The translations under genes were made by a program, and so were the position numbers. From Myxococcota bacterium (GTDB lineage: Bacteria > Myxococcota_A > Polyangia > Polyangiales > Sandaracinaceae): DNA of 13,103 nucleotides. Below the pieces are notes generated by a model. The model was not told the DNA's origin and did not search any database. It saw only the letters and a list, made by a program, of their open reading frames with translations. This document shows, piece after piece, positions 1,747 to 13,103 of this stretch. The stretch lies in NCBI GenBank assembly GCA_036149055.1, contig JAYZQJ010000271.1:1-13103 (forward strand). Reading direction: 5' to 3'. Position 1 is the first letter of the stretch, and every line of letters begins with the position of its first letter.

Positions 1747-3567
1747 ATGTCGAGGAGCGTGCGACGTGGCGGATGGATCGGTGGGGGCGCGATGCTGGCG
1801 ACCGGGCTCGCGCTTTTCAGCTGGCTGGCGCCGGAGCCCGAGGCGAACGACTCCCCCGAGGGGCAGACCCCGCGCCGCGCTCTGGGTCTGCGCGCAGGGG
1901 TCGCGGGGGCTCTCGAGCTCCCGGCCGACGCTGCGCGCGCCATGGCTCACGACGGTGGTGTGGCCTCCGCTCCCGAGGCGTGTGCGCAGGTGCGCGTGCG
2001 GGAGCGCGGCGGGCGAGGGGTATCCGCGAGGATCCGAGTCGCGGTGAGGCCGAGCGACGGAACCTGGGCGCGGCGGCCGGCGCGTCGGGCCGACGCCGAG
2101 GGCCACGTCGAGATCTGCGCGGTCGAGGGGGCGAGCCTTCTGCTGAGGGCCCGCACCGACGAGGGTCAGCGCGGAGCGCTCATCCTGTATCCCAGCGAGT
2201 GGCAGGGTCGTGTGCTGACGCTGCCGGTCGCGGGGCTCGCGCGCGTCCGCGGGCGGGTGCTCGATCCCGATGGCCGCGCCCTCGAAGGCGCGCGCATCAC
2301 GGTGGCATCGTTCTTCCGCGGCAGGGACGGCGGACCGAGCTACCTCCCGAGGGACGCCTCCCCGGTCTGGGCGGCAGAGCCGACCTGGTCCGACGCGGAG
2401 GGACGATTCGAGGTACGGATCCTGGGGCAGCAGACCTTTCAGGTCGGCGCCGAGCACGACGGCTACGCGCGCACCTGGAGCGGGCCATTCGCCGGGCGCC
2501 CGGGCGCGACGTACGAGACCGAGGTTCGCATGGAGCCGGCGCGGGCCTTCGACGTCACCATCACTCATGGCGGCGTCCCGCTGGAGAATGCGCAGATCGT
2601 CGTGCACCCGACGAACGTGCACGGGCGCTTTCCGCCCATCCCTCTTCCCGACGGCCACTACCGGCTGGAGGGGCAACACCCGGACGCGCGGTTCGACCTC
2701 AGCGCGTCCGCAGAGGGCTATGTCTGGAGCGGGCGCCGGACACTCGGCGTCGGTACGCACGAGATCGAGCTGGCGCGAGGCGCCACCGTACGCGTCGACG
2801 TGAGCGTCGATCCCGCGCTCGCGCCCTGTCTAGGCGCTCCAATCCTACCGAGGTGGGAGGGGTTCTTCGTTCCCAGGACTCGTGTCTTCGGGCGCCTGGA
2901 AGGCGCGTCGGCCGGCTCGGGCGCGACTCTGGACGCGGCGAGCGGCACCCTCGTCTTCCGCGGAGTCCCACCCGGGCCCGCGCGCCTCACGGTCAGCGTC
3001 CTCGGCTCGTCCGAGGAGCGCGAGGTCGAAGTGCGTCTCCCGGAGACCTGGCTCCCGCCGGTCCGCCTCGTCCCCGACGGCGACACCGGCGTGATCCGAA
3101 TCATCGCCGACGATGACGACAGCTACTTCGCGATCACCGAGGAGGATGGCTCGCCTCGCCGCGAAGGAATGCCCCAAACGAGGTGGTCCTGCGAACCCCT
3201 CCCACCGGGGACGTATCGAGTCCGGGCGCGCGAGGAGCATGTCGTGCACCTCACCGCTGGCCGCGTGGTCGACGTCCGGATCGCACACCATGAGCGCCCG
3301 ACCCGGACCTACCCCTCGACGTGTGCACCCCCGTTCGATGTGCGCGCTCTCGAGGACGGCACCCTGCTGGTCACCGCGCTGAAGGCCTACGCCGACGACC
3401 GGGTGTTGCCCGGCGACCGCATCCTCGCGGTGGAGGGCGAGGAGGAGCTCGGCCTCGGCACCCTCACCGGTCCGGCGTGGTCCCGCCTCCGGGCCTTCGT
3501 CGAGCAGCCGGACGGGGCGCGCCGGTGGGTGGAGCTGGAGCGTGTTCCCCGTCAGGACGCCCGCTGA
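1747..3567 (+). CDS. Membrane-anchored carboxypeptidase-regulatory-like (beta-sandwich repeat) protein with a C-terminal PDZ-like domain, 606 aa
   Basis: N-terminal basic plus hydrophobic anchor (MSRSVRRGGWIGGGAMLATGLALFSWLA). Repeats typical of CarboxypepD_reg domains (VRGRVLDPDGRALEGARITV, SDAEGRFEV, ADAEGHVEI, LPPGTYRVRA). The C-terminal LPGDRILAVEG...LTGPAWSRLRAFVEQPDG..WVELER is PDZ-like. Strong GC3 bias. Confidence 0.88.
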   Translation: MSRSVRRGGWIGGGAMLATGLALFSWLAPEPEANDSPEGQTPRRALGLRAGVAGALELPADAARAMAHDGGVASAPEACAQVRVRERGGRGVSARIRVAVRPSDGTWARRPARRADAEGHVEICAVEGASLLLRARTDEGQRGALILYPSEWQGRVLTLPVAGLARVRGRVLDPDGRALEGARITVASFFRGRDGGPSYLPRDASPVWAAEPTWSDAEGRFEVRILGQQTFQVGAEHDGYARTWSGPFAGRPGATYETEVRMEPARAFDVTITHGGVPLENAQIVVHPTNVHGRFPPIPLPDGHYRLEGQHPDARFDLSASAEGYVWSGRRTLGVGTHEIELARGATVRVDVSVDPALAPCLGAPILPRWEGFFVPRTRVFGRLEGASAGSGATLDAASGTLVFRGVPPGPARLTVSVLGSSEEREVEVRLPETWLPPVRLVPDGDTGVIRIIADDDDSYFAITEEDGSPRREGMPQTRWSCEPLPPGTYRVRAREEHVVHLTAGRVVDVRIAHHERPTRTYPSTCAPPFDVRALEDGTLLVTALKAYADDRVLPGDRILAVEGEEELGLGTLTGPAWSRLRAFVEQPDGARRWVELERVPRQDAR

Positions 3568-3595
3568 ACCGTCGTCCCGGTCTCCCCGGAGCCCA
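3552..3595 (+). repeat. 44-bp direct repeat, copy 1 (last 16 nt of the 606-aa CDS including TGA, plus 28 nt downstream)
   Basis: tcaggacgcccgctgaaccgtcgtcccgGtctccccggagccca, 43/44 identical to 4467-4510. Confidence 0.97.
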
Positions 3596-4466: not shown

Positions 4467-4510
4467 TCAGGACGCCCGCTGAACCGTCGTCCCGTTCTCC
4501 CCGGAGCCCA
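4467..4510 (+). repeat. 44-bp direct repeat, copy 2
   Basis: tcaggacgcccgctgaaccgtcgtcccgTtctccccggagccca, 915 bp from copy 1, with a single mismatch (G3580 vs T4495). Confidence 0.97.
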
Positions 4511-8988: not shown

Positions 8989-9522
8989 TCAGCTGAAGGG
9001 CCAGGGCGCGGGGGCGCCGCTCGCGACCAGGTCTCGCCACGCGGTGTCTCGGTCGCCGACGTAGAGGCACATGTGGACGGGGTGGCCGTTGTTGTGGCCG
9101 GGGCCTTCGTAGAGCCACTCGGGGAGCGCGCGGAGCTGCTGGCGCACGACCTCGTCGCGCACGCCGGCGCCGAGGAGCCAGCGGCGACCCAGCGCGAGGT
9201 GGTCCACCCAGATCCAGCTGTAGAGGAGGCGCCGCGCGTCCGCCGTCACCTCGTCGAGGAGCCAGAGCGCGCCGCAGTCGGCGCAGTCTTCGGGGGCGCG
9301 GTCGCCGAGCAGGTTCTCGTCGGTGGCCGCGGCCGCCAGCGAGGGGAGGTTCGGCCCGAGCGTGATCCGATAGCCGCCGACCATGCGATCCGCGTCGTCG
9401 AAGAGGCCGCGCGCGTGGCTGGCCGCGAGCGTCGCCGCGTCGATGCCCCAGGGGGTGAGCGCGCGGTAGCGGGTGGCGAACTCGTCGAAGTCGCGCGCGG
9501 AGCTCAGCTTGCGTGTGCGCAT
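8989..9522 (-). CDS. Hypothetical protein (177 aa), possibly GNAT/acyl-ACP N-acyltransferase-like fold, overlapping the PKS 3' end
   Basis: ATG at 9522 is preceded by a purine-rich GGAAGAAGGGA and overlaps the PKS end by 19 nt. Strong GC3 from this ATG. The pattern RGLFDDADRMVGGYRI...DCADCGALWL...RRLLY...GRRWLLGA fits the GNAT strand/helix order. The product call is tentative. Confidence 0.8.
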   Translation of the reverse strand: MRTRKLSSARDFDEFATRYRALTPWGIDAATLAASHARGLFDDADRMVGGYRITLGPNLPSLAAAATDENLLGDRAPEDCADCGALWLLDEVTADARRLLYSWIWVDHLALGRRWLLGAGVRDEVVRQQLRALPEWLYEGPGHNNGHPVHMCLYVGDRDTAWRDLVASGAPAPWPFS

Positions 9523-12500
9523 GGGGGCGTCCCTTCTTCCTTCTCTCGGCTCGGGCGGAGGGCGGCGTGGAGCGCGTCGGCCGCCGCCCGCAGGTCGGCG
9601 TCCTCGTGCCGCACGGAGACGACGAGGCGCAGGCCCGCGTCGCGCTCGGCCACCCTGGGCCAGCCGATGGGCGCGGTCTCGACGCCGCGGTCGAGGAGCG
9701 CTCGCCACACGCGCAGGGTCTCCGGCGTGTCGCCGACGCGCAGGAAGACGGTGGCGCTCGCGGGAGACGCGGTGGCGCGCGCTCCGGCGCTCGTCGCCAG
9801 GGCGCGCAGGGCCTCGACGCGCTCGCCGACGCGCGCGGTCCTCGCCCCGTCGAGCCCGTCGAGCGCCGCGTCGAGCGCGGCGATCACCCACTCCGCCGGG
9901 GGCGCGTGGCGCGTCTGGTGGCGGAGGAGCCGGAGGGCCCGCTCGCGCCCGGCGACGACCACGCCCGACGCGCCGAGGTGAGTGAGCCGGGCGACGTCGA
10001 AGGCGGCGCCGGGGCTCGGGTCGGCGAGGCCGAGCGAGCGGGTGTGGTCGACGACGAGGACCACGCCTCGCCGCTCGGCGAGCTCACGCAGCGCGTCGAC
10101 GGGCAGCGCGGTCCCGTCGACGTCGCAGGTCCGGGCGACGCAGAGCAGCGCGCGCTCGTGGGCATCGCGGTGCGCGTCGAGCCATGCGTCGAGGCCGGGG
10201 AGGTCGTCGGGGGAGGCGCGGTGCACGCGCGCGGCGGTGTGGAGGGGCTCGGGAGCGGCGAGCCGGGTGACGTGCACGACGAGGTCGTCCGCCCGCGCGA
10301 AGGTCGAGGTGATCGGCGCGAAGGGGCAGCCGCCGGCGCCGATCGACAGGGCGGCCTCGGCCTCGAAGACCGCGGCGAGGCGTCGCTCGAGGCGGCGCTG
10401 CGCCTCGGTCTCTCGCGCGGTGGCCGGGGCGAACGACGAGACGGTGCCGGCGCCCATCGCCTCTCGCGCGGCCGCGATGACCCGCGGGTCGCGGGCGAAG
10501 CCGAGCGGGTCGTGGGCGGCGAAGGTGAGGCCCGGCTGGCGCGCGCGGGCAGGGTGCGCCTCGAGCTGCAAGGCGCGCATCATCGCCAGCTGCTCCTCGA
10601 GCCGATCGACCTCGGGCCAGCGCTCCGGGTCGGCGTGCTGACGGGCGGAGGCGGCGGGCGCCTCGCAGGCCGCGACGTGCGCGATGACCTCGGCCACGGT
10701 GGCCTCGGCGCCGAAGAGCGACTCGGCCACCGCGGGGTCGAGCGCGAGCTCCTCGCCGAGCTCGATGAGCAGGATGGAGTCCATGCCCAGGTCGGCGATG
10801 AGCCTCCGCTCCTCGCTCACCTGCGAGACGTCCATCGCGCAGACGAGCGCCACCGCCTCGAGCACCCGCGCGCGGACGTCGGCCGGCGGGGCAGGCGCGG
10901 GCGTGGGCTCGGCGGGGCGAGCGCGAGGGCGGAGCGCCGGGTAGGGCTCGCGGGTGACCGGCGTCTCGGGCAGGGTCGTCACCCTTCGCTCGAAGGGGTC
11001 CTCGCGCAGCGTCGTGGCCAGGTCGAAGGGGACGCCGCGCGCCACGAGCGCGCCCACCACCCGGAGGACCGCCTCCGCCGCCTCGTCCTCTGGCCGGTCG
11101 TGGAACGCGAGGCCGGGCGCCCGCGGCCCGCCGAGCCCCACGACCACGTCCGCCTCGACGACGAAGTCCGCGTCCGGCGCCGGCGCGTCGCCCGACAGCG
11201 CGCGGCGCAGCGCCTCCTCGTCGGTCAGCTCCCCCGTCCACGCCGAGAGCGCGAGCTCCGCGCCGAAGGTCGCGTCGGGGCGCACGCCGCGGTCGCCGAG
11301 CCAGCGCGCGAGCGCGAGCGACAGGGCCAGCGAGGCGGCGGCCCGCGCCGGGACCGGAGACGCGGCGCTCGTGTCGTCGAGGCGGCTGGAGCCGGCGCGC
11401 GCGAGGGCCGCGTCCAGCTCGTCGACCCGCGCGGCGAGGGCGGGGAAGCGGCGCAGCGCGCTCGGCAGCCAGCGCGGCGGCGCCTCTTCGTCGAGCGCGA
11501 AGCAGAACGCGACCGACGGCGGCGCCGCGCCGGGCGCGACGAGCTCGAGGGAGCCGGCGGCGGCGGCGAGCGCGGCCCGCGACCCGGTCAGCGCGGCGCG
11601 GTAGGGGGCCAGGGTCCGCGTGACGCCGAGCGTCCAGGCGGCGTCGGCGAGCGAGCCCGCGCCGTCGCGCGCGAGCGCCTCCGAGACCTCCCGCGCCATT
11701 CGCCGCGCGCCGTCGGCCGTGTCCGCGGAGACGACCAGGGTCTCGGCCACCGGCTCGGCGCGGCGGCGCGGCGGCGGCGGCGCGGCGAGCACGAGGTGCG
11801 AGTTGGTGCCGCCGAAGCCGAACGCGCTCACGCCCACGCGGAGCGGCCGGCCGGGAAGGGCGTCGAGCGCGACGTTGTCGGTCGGCACCGCGAGGCGCCC
11901 GTCGCCGAGGGGGAGCTCCGGGTGGAGCCGCTCCAGCCCGGCCTGCCGCGGGACCACGCCTCGCCGCAGCACGCCGATGGCGCGCACCAGGCCCGCGGCC
12001 CCGGCGGCCGACATGGCGTGCCCGATGTTGCCCTTCACCGAGCCGATCCAGAGCGGCCTCTCCCGGTCGCCGAAGACCTCGGCCAGGGCGCGCGTCTCGG
12101 TGCGGTCGCCGCCCGCGGTCGCGGTCCCGTGCGCCTCCACGTAGTCGAGCTCGCGCGGGTCGAGGCCCGCGTCCTCGCAGGCGGCGCGGAGCACGGCGAC
12201 CTGCCCCTCGACGCGCGGGGTCATCGGGCCCTCGCCGCGCCCGTCGTTGTTGCAGCCGCTGCCGAGGATGAGCGCGTGCACCCGCTCGCGCGTCGGGTCG
12301 ACGTCGCGCTCGCGCTTGAGCACGAAGGTCGCCACGCCCTCGCCCTGGACGAAGCCGTCGGCGTCGGCGTCGAAGGGCCGGCAGCGCCCCGAGGGGCTGA
12401 TCGCGCCGATGCGCGTGAAGGCCACGAGGTTGTCGGGCGAGAGGTTGAGGTACACGCCGCCCGCGAGCGCGACGTCGAGCGCGCCCGCCCGGAGGTGAGT

Positions 12501-13103
12501 GACGGCGTCGTGGATCGCGACGTTGGCGGAGGCGCAGGCCGCGTCGATCGTGAACGCGGGGCCGCCGAGGTCGAAGGTCTGCGCGACGCTCGCCGCGGCC
12601 AGCGCCTGGAGAGACCCGCTGAGCGAGAAGCTCTGGGTGCGGGCCACGCGGTCCACCGCGCCGAGCAGCCGCGCCGCGTCCGGGCCGTCGAGGGCCGCGC
12701 CGAAGTCGCCCGCGATGGCCTGGGTCAGACGGATCCGCGCCATCATCGCGTTCTTGAACTCGCTCACCGACAGGCCGACGAACACGCCGGTCCGCGCGCG
12801 CTCGAGCCCCCCGCGCTCGAGCCCCGCGTCCTGCAGCGCCCAGCGCGTCGCCTCGATCAGCAAGCGATGCTGCGGATCCATCACCTCGGCGCGGCGGGGC
12901 GCGATGCCGAAGCACGCCGACGCGAAGCGCTCGAAGTCGTCGAGGAACGCGCCGGCCGGCGCCCAGCTGGTGTCGAGCCCGCGCGGGCTCGCGTCGGGGA
13001 AGGCGGCATGACGCCACCGCGACTCCGGGCTGGGGCGCAAGGAGGTGCGCCCCTCCCGGCTGAGCTCGAAGAGCGCCTCCGGGCGCGACGCCCCCGGGAA
13101 GAC
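9504..13103 (-). CDS. Type I polyketide synthase, 5'-partial (>=1199 aa): KS - degenerate AT - ACP - degenerate alpha-oxoamine synthase (AONS/SPT-like PLP fold)
   Basis: The frame is open to the window edge (VFPGASRPEALFEL...). KS motifs: MDPQHRLLIE, DAACASA (Cys codon 12534-12536), EAHGTAT, SVKGNIGH, GVSAFGFGGTNSHLVL. ACP: DLGMDSI (Ser codon 10776-10778). The C-terminal ~370 aa align with class I/II aminotransferase/AONS motifs. Confidence 0.95.
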   Translation of the reverse strand, partial: VFPGASRPEALFELSREGRTSLRPSPESRWRHAAFPDASPRGLDTSWAPAGAFLDDFERFASACFGIAPRRAEVMDPQHRLLIEATRWALQDAGLERGGLERARTGVFVGLSVSEFKNAMMARIRLTQAIAGDFGAALDGPDAARLLGAVDRVARTQSFSLSGSLQALAAASVAQTFDLGGPAFTIDAACASANVAIHDAVTHLRAGALDVALAGGVYLNLSPDNLVAFTRIGAISPSGRCRPFDADADGFVQGEGVATFVLKRERDVDPTRERVHALILGSGCNNDGRGEGPMTPRVEGQVAVLRAACEDAGLDPRELDYVEAHGTATAGGDRTETRALAEVFGDRERPLWIGSVKGNIGHAMSAAGAAGLVRAIGVLRRGVVPRQAGLERLHPELPLGDGRLAVPTDNVALDALPGRPLRVGVSAFGFGGTNSHLVLAAPPPPRRRAEPVAETLVVSADTADGARRMAREVSEALARDGAGSLADAAWTLGVTRTLAPYRAALTGSRAALAAAAGSLELVAPGAAPPSVAFCFALDEEAPPRWLPSALRRFPALAARVDELDAALARAGSSRLDDTSAASPVPARAAASLALSLALARWLGDRGVRPDATFGAELALSAWTGELTDEEALRRALSGDAPAPDADFVVEADVVVGLGGPRAPGLAFHDRPEDEAAEAVLRVVGALVARGVPFDLATTLREDPFERRVTTLPETPVTREPYPALRPRARPAEPTPAPAPPADVRARVLEAVALVCAMDVSQVSEERRLIADLGMDSILLIELGEELALDPAVAESLFGAEATVAEVIAHVAACEAPAASARQHADPERWPEVDRLEEQLAMMRALQLEAHPARARQPGLTFAAHDPLGFARDPRVIAAAREAMGAGTVSSFAPATARETEAQRRLERRLAAVFEAEAALSIGAGGCPFAPITSTFARADDLVVHVTRLAAPEPLHTAARVHRASPDDLPGLDAWLDAHRDAHERALLCVARTCDVDGTALPVDALRELAERRGVVLVVDHTRSLGLADPSPGAAFDVARLTHLGASGVVVAGRERALRLLRHQTRHAPPAEWVIAALDAALDGLDGARTARVGERVEALRALATSAGARATASPASATVFLRVGDTPETLRVWRALLDRGVETAPIGWPRVAERDAGLRLVVSVRHEDADLRAAADALHAALRPSREKEEGTPPCAHAS
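9540..10650 (-). other. Alpha-oxoamine synthase (BioF/SPT-like) domain lacking catalytic residues
   Basis: FAAHDPLGFARDPRVIAAAREA, LERRLAAVFEAEAA, DVDGT, LVVDHTRSLG and LLDRGVETAPIGWPRV....AGLRL.VS..H are colinear with AONS motifs, but the domain contains no Lys at all. Confidence 0.82.
10670..10880 (-). other. Acyl carrier protein (ACP) domain
   Basis: VRARVLEAVA...RRLIADLGMDSILLIEL...ATVAEVIAHV, with the phosphopantetheinylation Ser intact. Confidence 0.9.
11020..11515 (-). other. Acyltransferase (AT) remnant, inactive and internally deleted
   Basis: VAFCFALDE replaces VAFLFPGQG. GVRPDATFGAELA lacks GHSxG. The domain is only about 165 aa. Confidence 0.8.
11785..13103 (-). other. Ketosynthase (KS) domain with an intact Cys-His-His triad
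   Basis: TIDAACASA, YVEAHGTAT and KGNIGHAMSAAG are all present. Confidence 0.93.

Follow-up and report, generated by a model that had tools for sequence, protein, structure and literature searches.

The window analysed here, a stretch of 13,103 nucleotides, is the whole of contig C271 in the 9.9 Mb genome (73% GC) of a bacterium of the Myxococcota. It carries, on the reverse strand, a type I polyketide synthase (PKS) gene whose product ends in a dead α-oxoamine synthase (AOS) domain and, directly behind it, a gene for a protein of predicted GNAT fold. The PKS comprises a ketosynthase (KS), the remnant of an acyltransferase (AT), an acyl carrier protein (ACP) and the AOS relic (Table 1). Its frame has 1199 codons and is open at the 5′ end; the full protein consists of 1211 residues, the first 12 codons lying past the contig end. 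The end of contig C226 of the same genome holds a fatty acyl-AMP ligase (FAAL) gene, a free ACP and the start of the PKS, and an independent 80-kb metagenome contig (L059) spans this end and the window at 98.5–98.7% identity, fixing the gene order as FAAL, free ACP, PKS and GNAT-fold gene. Near-identical DNA is present in the sequencing runs of 12 studies, mostly of seawater. Over its last ~140 bases (12960–13103) the window departs from L059 and P0002 at many positions, and fraying affects the matching end of C226 too; these differences are probably assembly noise at the contig ends.

The AOS domain and its lost residues

The first-pass annotation had described the PKS as ending in a full-length AOS-like domain without the lysine that binds pyridoxal 5′-phosphate (PLP), and this description is borne out. 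A phmmer search against the PDB matches the domain to KBL (E = 3e-10), and the TIGR00858 profile of BioF finds it with E = 3e-23 and 82 bits, the cut-off of the profile being 426; a search with PF00155, which had been suggested as a check, gives no match to the domain. Given a 60-row alignment, AlphaFold yields a model with a pLDDT of 90.8, which Foldseek relates to BioF, KBL and serine palmitoyltransferase (SPT) with TM scores of 0.77–0.87, so that homology and this alignment-dependent model agree on a fold-type I PLP domain from end to end, as had been predicted. Since the single sequence folds poorly (pLDDT 46.6) and the better model leans on the family alignment, the latter shows ancestry more than present stability.

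The five motif changes listed in the first-pass annotation were all located as claimed: NYLG is replaced within HDPLG (10500–10514), the histidine motif by HVTRLAAP (10251–10274), EGVYSMDG by ARTCDVDG (10113–10136), VDEAH by VDHTR (10038–10052) and GTLSK by ARLTH (9978–9992). The Schiff-base lysine is kept in 150 of 151 aligned AOS matches; the present domain contains no lysine at all, the sole one beyond residue 800 being Lys1200 in the tail, and in its shortened lysine loop either the T or the H can be aligned to the missing residue. Taking the S. multivorum (Sphingobacterium) SPT (Sm SPT) as the reference numbering for loops and histidines, the stacking His138 is lost (DSLAHDS to VTRLAAP), as is the equivalent of His213 (DEAH to DHTR, with the Asp retained). 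The trans-acting loops are altered or deleted (GTVSSFAPA, 10422–10448; RHQTRHAPP, 9897–9923), and 44 family columns are gapped, every indel being in frame. Homology and modelling together confirm the domain as a full-length relic of a fold-type I AOS without the chemistry, which should be unable either to bind PLP as an aldimine or to complete the active site of a partner.

Compensated frameshifts were rejected as the source of the divergence because a single frame carries the entire match and the GC content at third codon positions (GC3) stays at 0.93–1.0 throughout (0.945 for the AOS domain and 0.98 for the KS); sequencing error was rejected because the same relic recurs on an independent contig as well as in five cluster members. 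A separate FAAL-ACP-AOS protein (P0047; 1225 residues) has His in place of the AOS lysine and lacks the stacking histidine, and by these residues is a second, independent pseudo-AOS behind an ACP.

The state of the loops bears on the earlier proposal that the domain is a bacterial counterpart of LCB1/SPTLC1, pairing with an active AOS and completing its active site. The two share an AOS fold without the PLP lysine, here of full length, and the recommended search of the genome for intact AOS genes did return four, each with its own lysine and loops. In the account of the SPTLC1 heterodimer drawn on here, the sites of interest are Sm SPT residues 79–81 (Ala79 being SPTLC1 Cys133) and 271–274, which would, in part by our own reading, come from the opposite subunit (PMC10196870). 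These map to SASR and FVYSV in the intact relatives of the PKS; in the relic Ala79–Ser81 are replaced (SAS-R to SFA-P) and Met271–Ala274 are deleted together with the rest of PGFVYSVG. Unlike SPTLC1, moreover, the relic has no conserved partner and is under relaxed selection (see below): no AOS gene lies within 6 kb on either side, and no conserved lysine-less orthologue was found among 300 genomes of the order or 1.84 billion representatives. A role of this kind is very improbable.

Several features had escaped the first-pass annotation, namely the dead AT, a deletion of the ketoreductase and dehydratase (KR-DH), the upstream FAAL and ACP genes and the downstream GNAT-fold gene. In the AT remnant GHSLG has become TFG--A, with the serine gone, and about 130 residues are missing, including the small subdomain and the HAFH/HGFH motif; the post-AT linker is retained. 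The KR-DH, which comes after the ACP in the relatives, is deleted.

Table 1. Coordinates of the features of the window, those of the PKS locus first.
Feature	Position	Strand	Basis or remark
Type I PKS gene (KS - dead AT - ACP - dead AOS)	9504..13103	-	Frame of 1199 codons, open at the 5′ end
KS	11775..13103	-	Triad motifs intact: DAACAS 12528-12545, HGTAT 12117-12131, KGNIGH 12018-12035
KS-AT linker and dead AT remnant	10905..11774	-	GHSLG reads TFG--A; post-AT linker kept
PKS ACP	10674..10868	-	Attachment Ser intact, DLGMDS 10776-10793
Dead AOS domain	9555..10628	-	No Lys, both His lost, loops altered or deleted
Purine-rich Shine-Dalgarno-like stretch for the GNAT-fold gene	9523..9546	-	Within the last PKS codons
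FeeM/LuxI-fold (GNAT) gene, 177 residues	8989..9522	-	Overlaps the end of the PKS gene by 19 nt; GC3 0.95
Secreted right-handed beta-helix protein, 856 residues	6350-8920	-	PF13229
Protein with carboxypeptidase regulatory-like domain, 606 residues	1747-3567	+	Stop codon inside the first 44-nt repeat
44-nt direct repeat	3552-3595 and 4467-4510		98% identical

Intact relatives and selection on the domains

Of 18 loci taken from genome contigs, 15 (L041–L055) are true relatives, and three distant PKS loci were excluded. The 15 belong to Myxococcota or Deltaproteobacteria, by record title where one is given, and their genes run in the order FAAL, ACP and PKS, with a cyclopropane-synthase-like gene and a desaturase ahead of the PKS at some loci; the PKS has about 2300–2500 residues, and its domains are KS-AT-ACP-KR-DH-AOS in the six that were scanned. 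Both GHSLG and GTxSK are kept at all 15 loci. At one (L045, 7977–14868) a frameshift ahead of the KR, either an assembly error or a real break, divides the PKS between two frames. The present locus shares 52–59% identity with the relatives in the KS, 39–50% in the FAAL and 33–40% in the ACP. Set against the 15 relatives, the KS is 56% identical (67% among the relatives themselves) and the AOS 27% (73% among them); the AOS branch has a length of 4.8–5.5 for the relic versus 0.11–1.0 for other PKS-fused AOS domains, and residues with AT-rich codons have fallen from about 20% in the relatives to 4%.

The best PDB match of one relative's AOS is the Sphingobacterium SPT (226 bits), and the parent FAAL-ACP-PKS-AOS family most likely makes sphingoid-type amino-lipids. 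Its KS is found in 47 of 49 genomes of family f52 (L103 and L104, for example), where a PKS-based sphingolipid route is probably core, a frequency that would suit a housekeeping lipid pathway. Some family members without the AT or KR-DH still keep the AOS, and AT-less KS-ACP-AOS proteins with an intact lysine exist (P0010, P0012), so that losing the AT is not fatal to such a line. By description, not by sequence comparison, the family resembles SgaAB of Pseudomonas fluorescens MYb115, a monomodular PKS coupled to an AOS: an iterative PKS and a serine-specific AOS/SPT are reported to yield very-long-chain sphinganines there (PMC12134224). There the AOS is separate and active, whereas in the present family it is fused and fed by the FAAL and ACP, and in the present copy it is dead and the KR-DH gone. 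The order FAAL-ACP-KS-AT-ACP-AOS, split over three genes in this cluster, also recalls the PKS-fused AOS release domains RedL, PigH/RedN and SxtA; the AT and AOS of this PKS are dead, however, and no prodigiosin genes were seen nearby.

Selection was assessed by comparing this genome (G000) with L059; the initial 48 codons of the PKS, which lie where the contig end is frayed, were left out. Nonsynonymous and synonymous differences number 3 and 12 in the FAAL, 0 and 6 in the KS, 7 and 6 in the AT relic, 7 and 5 in the AOS relic, 0 and 1 in the GNAT gene and 5 and 9 in the beta-helix gene; with 40 of 96 contig variants added they become 1 and 5 for the GNAT gene and 7 and 6 for the AOS relic. 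The FAAL, KS and GNAT genes are under purifying selection. The AOS relic (7/5) differs from the KS and FAAL combined (3/18; Fisher p = 0.016) and cannot be distinguished from neutrality (p = 0.23; pN/pS ~0.5).

Neutral decay was simulated from four relatives, in place of the true ancestor, down to the same identity. The relic retains 65% of the hydrophobic core columns, compared with 40±5% in the GC-matched simulations, and its second-position GC content (GC2) is 0.57, where the GC model that matches the observed GC1 and GC3 predicts 0.75; of the invariant polar residues 27% survive, with a neutral expectation of 28%. A simulation at lower GC comes nearer to the relic in the core (52±5%, maximum 67%), but with a GC3 of 0.81 instead of 0.96. 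With core retention above the neutral expectation, GC2 below it and the polar residues at the neutral rate, the chemistry appears free to drift and the fold weakly held. In both the AT and AOS relics selection is relaxed, not absent. The survival of the polar residues at the neutral rate is a further point against an LCB1-like subunit.

The claim of selection on the fold rather than decay thus holds for the core and GC2, and fails in that the copy is relaxed. Relaxed selection on this copy beside close relatives that keep GTLSK, the outcome that the first-pass annotation had opposed to its own reading, is largely what is found, and the conserved lysine loss at dN/dS < 1 for which it had proposed to look among orthologues is not seen: no orthologue was found.

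The residual selection on the core and GC2 would also fit a relic with a job of its own unrelated to the GNAT protein, whether bracing the shortened PKS as a dimer or serving as a ligand-binding or regulatory domain, and the in-frame indels, among them a polymorphic one-residue deletion beside the lost lysine loop, point the same way. However, KS domains dimerise unaided, the interface loops are deleted, the polymorphism is compatible with neutrality, and staying folded to avoid aggregation would explain the signal equally well; we consider such a job unlikely. The relic may still act as a scaffold, as put forward earlier, its partner then being the GNAT-fold protein encoded downstream and not an AOS.

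Two dead domains and the KR-DH deletion could alternatively mean that the entire cluster is heading for pseudogene status, with the relics of AT and AOS simply further along; the failure to find the cluster in 31 other genomes of its own family and a Glu-to-Asp replacement in the GNAT protein (see below) would agree. The counts for the KS, FAAL and GNAT genes argue against this, as does the divergence of the relic to 27% identity beside an intact KS triad, for neutral simulations over that distance had to reject 3–13 stop codons on average. The cluster DNA recurs in the runs of the 12 studies, and one RNA run has contigs that cover FAAL-ACP-KS, the GNAT gene and a portion of the relic, a weak point since DNA carry-over may account for them. 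General decay of the cluster is accordingly quite improbable.

The GNAT-fold gene behind the PKS

The overlap of the GNAT-fold gene with the PKS gene and the Shine-Dalgarno-like stretch ahead of it suggest translational coupling of the two. An Atlas model of the protein (pTM 0.82) falls with the FeeM and AHL-synthase clusters at TM scores of 0.79–0.83, the structures compared being predicted models. The protein lacks the Q/RxxGxG/A loop for CoA, a trait given for carrier-protein-dependent GNATs such as FeeM (PMC11685415). Fold, missing loop and ACP neighbours are what it has in common with FeeM and LuxI; it differs in that the SAM-binding acidic motif and second Arg of LuxI are not seen, and in belonging to a small unnamed family of 13 members found. 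Searches of 400 genomes of the phylum, 400 of the class and 154 of another order found the 12 other members, in 1, 5 and 6 genomes respectively.

None of the 15 intact relative loci has a GNAT-fold gene after the PKS, and the family was not found in the genomes of these relatives, whose completeness is uncertain and for which there was no positive control. In family f52 the GNAT protein is present in 6 of 49 genomes, and as the PKS is present in 47 the intact pathway does not need it. Co-occurrence of GNAT and PKS in f52 was rejected as a signal since the PKS is core there, and a linkage of GNAT and AOS in G1040 was rejected since the neighbour is HisC-like. In L090 (839–8642) a GNAT member heads a cluster whose other genes encode a family-28 glycosyltransferase, a FAAL-ACP-thioesterase, a flavin oxidoreductase and a halogenase-like protein; the members in L091 and L092 likewise sit ahead of this glycosyltransferase.

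A docking model of the AOS relic with the GNAT protein scored 0.39, the best control scoring 0.00, and was judged weak. At least 50% of the contacts agree in the docking runs and the partner pLDDT is at least 77. Among solved complexes 116 of 157 pass the mark applied, as do 2 of 215 mismatches; at scores of 0.60 or below it is passed by just 18 of the 157 complexes and by both mismatches.

Bacterial ceramide synthase N-acylates a sphingoid base, and the GNAT-fold protein might do the same here if release took place in trans, an intact AOS from elsewhere (the SPT-like enzyme of C55, or that of C192) condensing the chain with an amino acid while the relic stays idle. That the genome has four intact AOS genes is compatible with this, and so is the presence of the family PKS in the four genomes with the closest GNAT homologues, the AOS being intact in both complete copies. 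A precedent is SgaB, described as acting in trans with the PKS SgaA (PMC12134224). The co-occurrence is, however, expected by chance from the two frequencies in f52, and the AOS genes of C55 and C192 belong to fatty-acid clusters of their own; release in trans is rather unlikely. With gene names assigned from motifs, C55 (16137–23090) encodes a FAAL, two ACPs, a thioesterase-like protein, a β-ketoacyl synthase (KAS) and the SPT-like enzyme, and C192 (12464–21650) encodes FabD-like and FabZ-like proteins, a KAS, two reductases, an ACP and the AOS; the AOS is intact in both.

As to the rest of the window, the beta-helix gene lies just downstream of the GNAT gene on the same strand; its low coverage in RNA run X19 was given no weight. 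The two 44-nt repeats flank about 870 nt that are replaced in strain L059 by an unrelated gene, and this stretch is by its sequence a strain-variable cassette slot, integron-cassette-like in look.

A candidate change of release chemistry

Since the FAAL, the KS, both ACPs and the GNAT gene are maintained, the assembly line is alive and needs an off-loading route; since the GNAT gene is absent after all 15 intact PKSs, was not found in their genomes and is rare in f52, it is an addition at the one locus where the AOS died. The explanation that we favour, with the chances for and against it about equal, is that a sphingoid-base line has been rewired, the off-loading of a 3-oxoacyl chain as an amide having passed to an ACP-dependent GNAT-fold acyltransferase. 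In this scheme the FAAL would charge the free ACP with a fatty acid, the PKS ACP would be malonylated by an AT acting in trans (C14 of this genome carries a FabD-like gene), and the KS would extend the chain to a 3-oxoacyl-ACP, unreduced because there is no KR or DH. The GNAT-fold enzyme would then transfer this chain to an amine, giving an N-(3-oxoacyl) amide and not a 3-keto sphingoid base. The AOS relic would persist as a folded, slowly eroding appendage that supplies the GNAT gene with its ribosome-binding site, and may hold the GNAT enzyme docked beside the ACP. The fuller version, in which one lineage swapped its release enzyme and kept the dead AOS as a docking platform for a FeeM/LuxI-fold amide synthase of an unnamed family, making a new long-chain N-(3-oxoacyl) amide lipid or signal, is put forward tentatively, as less likely than not.

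A number of observations weigh against this rewiring. The polymorphism counts are low and stem for the most part from a single strain pair. The protein is assigned to the GNAT fold by predicted structure, with no Pfam, NCBIfam or PDB sequence match, and differs from FeeM and LuxI in matching neither PF21926 nor PF00765. A central-strand Glu, which we take to be catalytic as in FeeM, is near-invariant in its family (12 of 13 members) and is replaced here by Asp, which may reduce activity. No PKS adjoins any of the 12 other members of the family, only one of which lies in a FAAL-ACP-thioesterase cluster. The relic is shared by strain variants at 99% and by no other orthologue found: it was found in none of 300 other genomes of the order, nothing above 88 bits occurs among the 1.84 billion representatives, and the KS of this cluster was found in none of 31 other genomes of its own family, so that the swap is seen in a single species and unreplicated. 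Position and a shared FPEV-type linker suggest descent of the relic from the fused AOS of the family; in the AOS tree it sits unplaced on a long branch, and in a profile test the stand-alone AOS profile scored higher, with diagnostic columns dividing 4 to 5, the stand-alone set having been chosen for likeness to the query.

No description of a lysine-less PKS-fused AOS or of such a release swap was found in the open-access text searched. If the rewiring is real, an assembly line would have switched product class by replacing its off-loading chemistry, from a C–C to an amide bond, with the old enzyme kept as a shell. The four genes would offer a system open to direct testing, an unnamed GNAT family would gain its first function, and an uncultured marine bacterium might prove to make a new lipid or signal. 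The fused PKS-AOS parent family, core in f52, is itself a candidate sphingolipid route.

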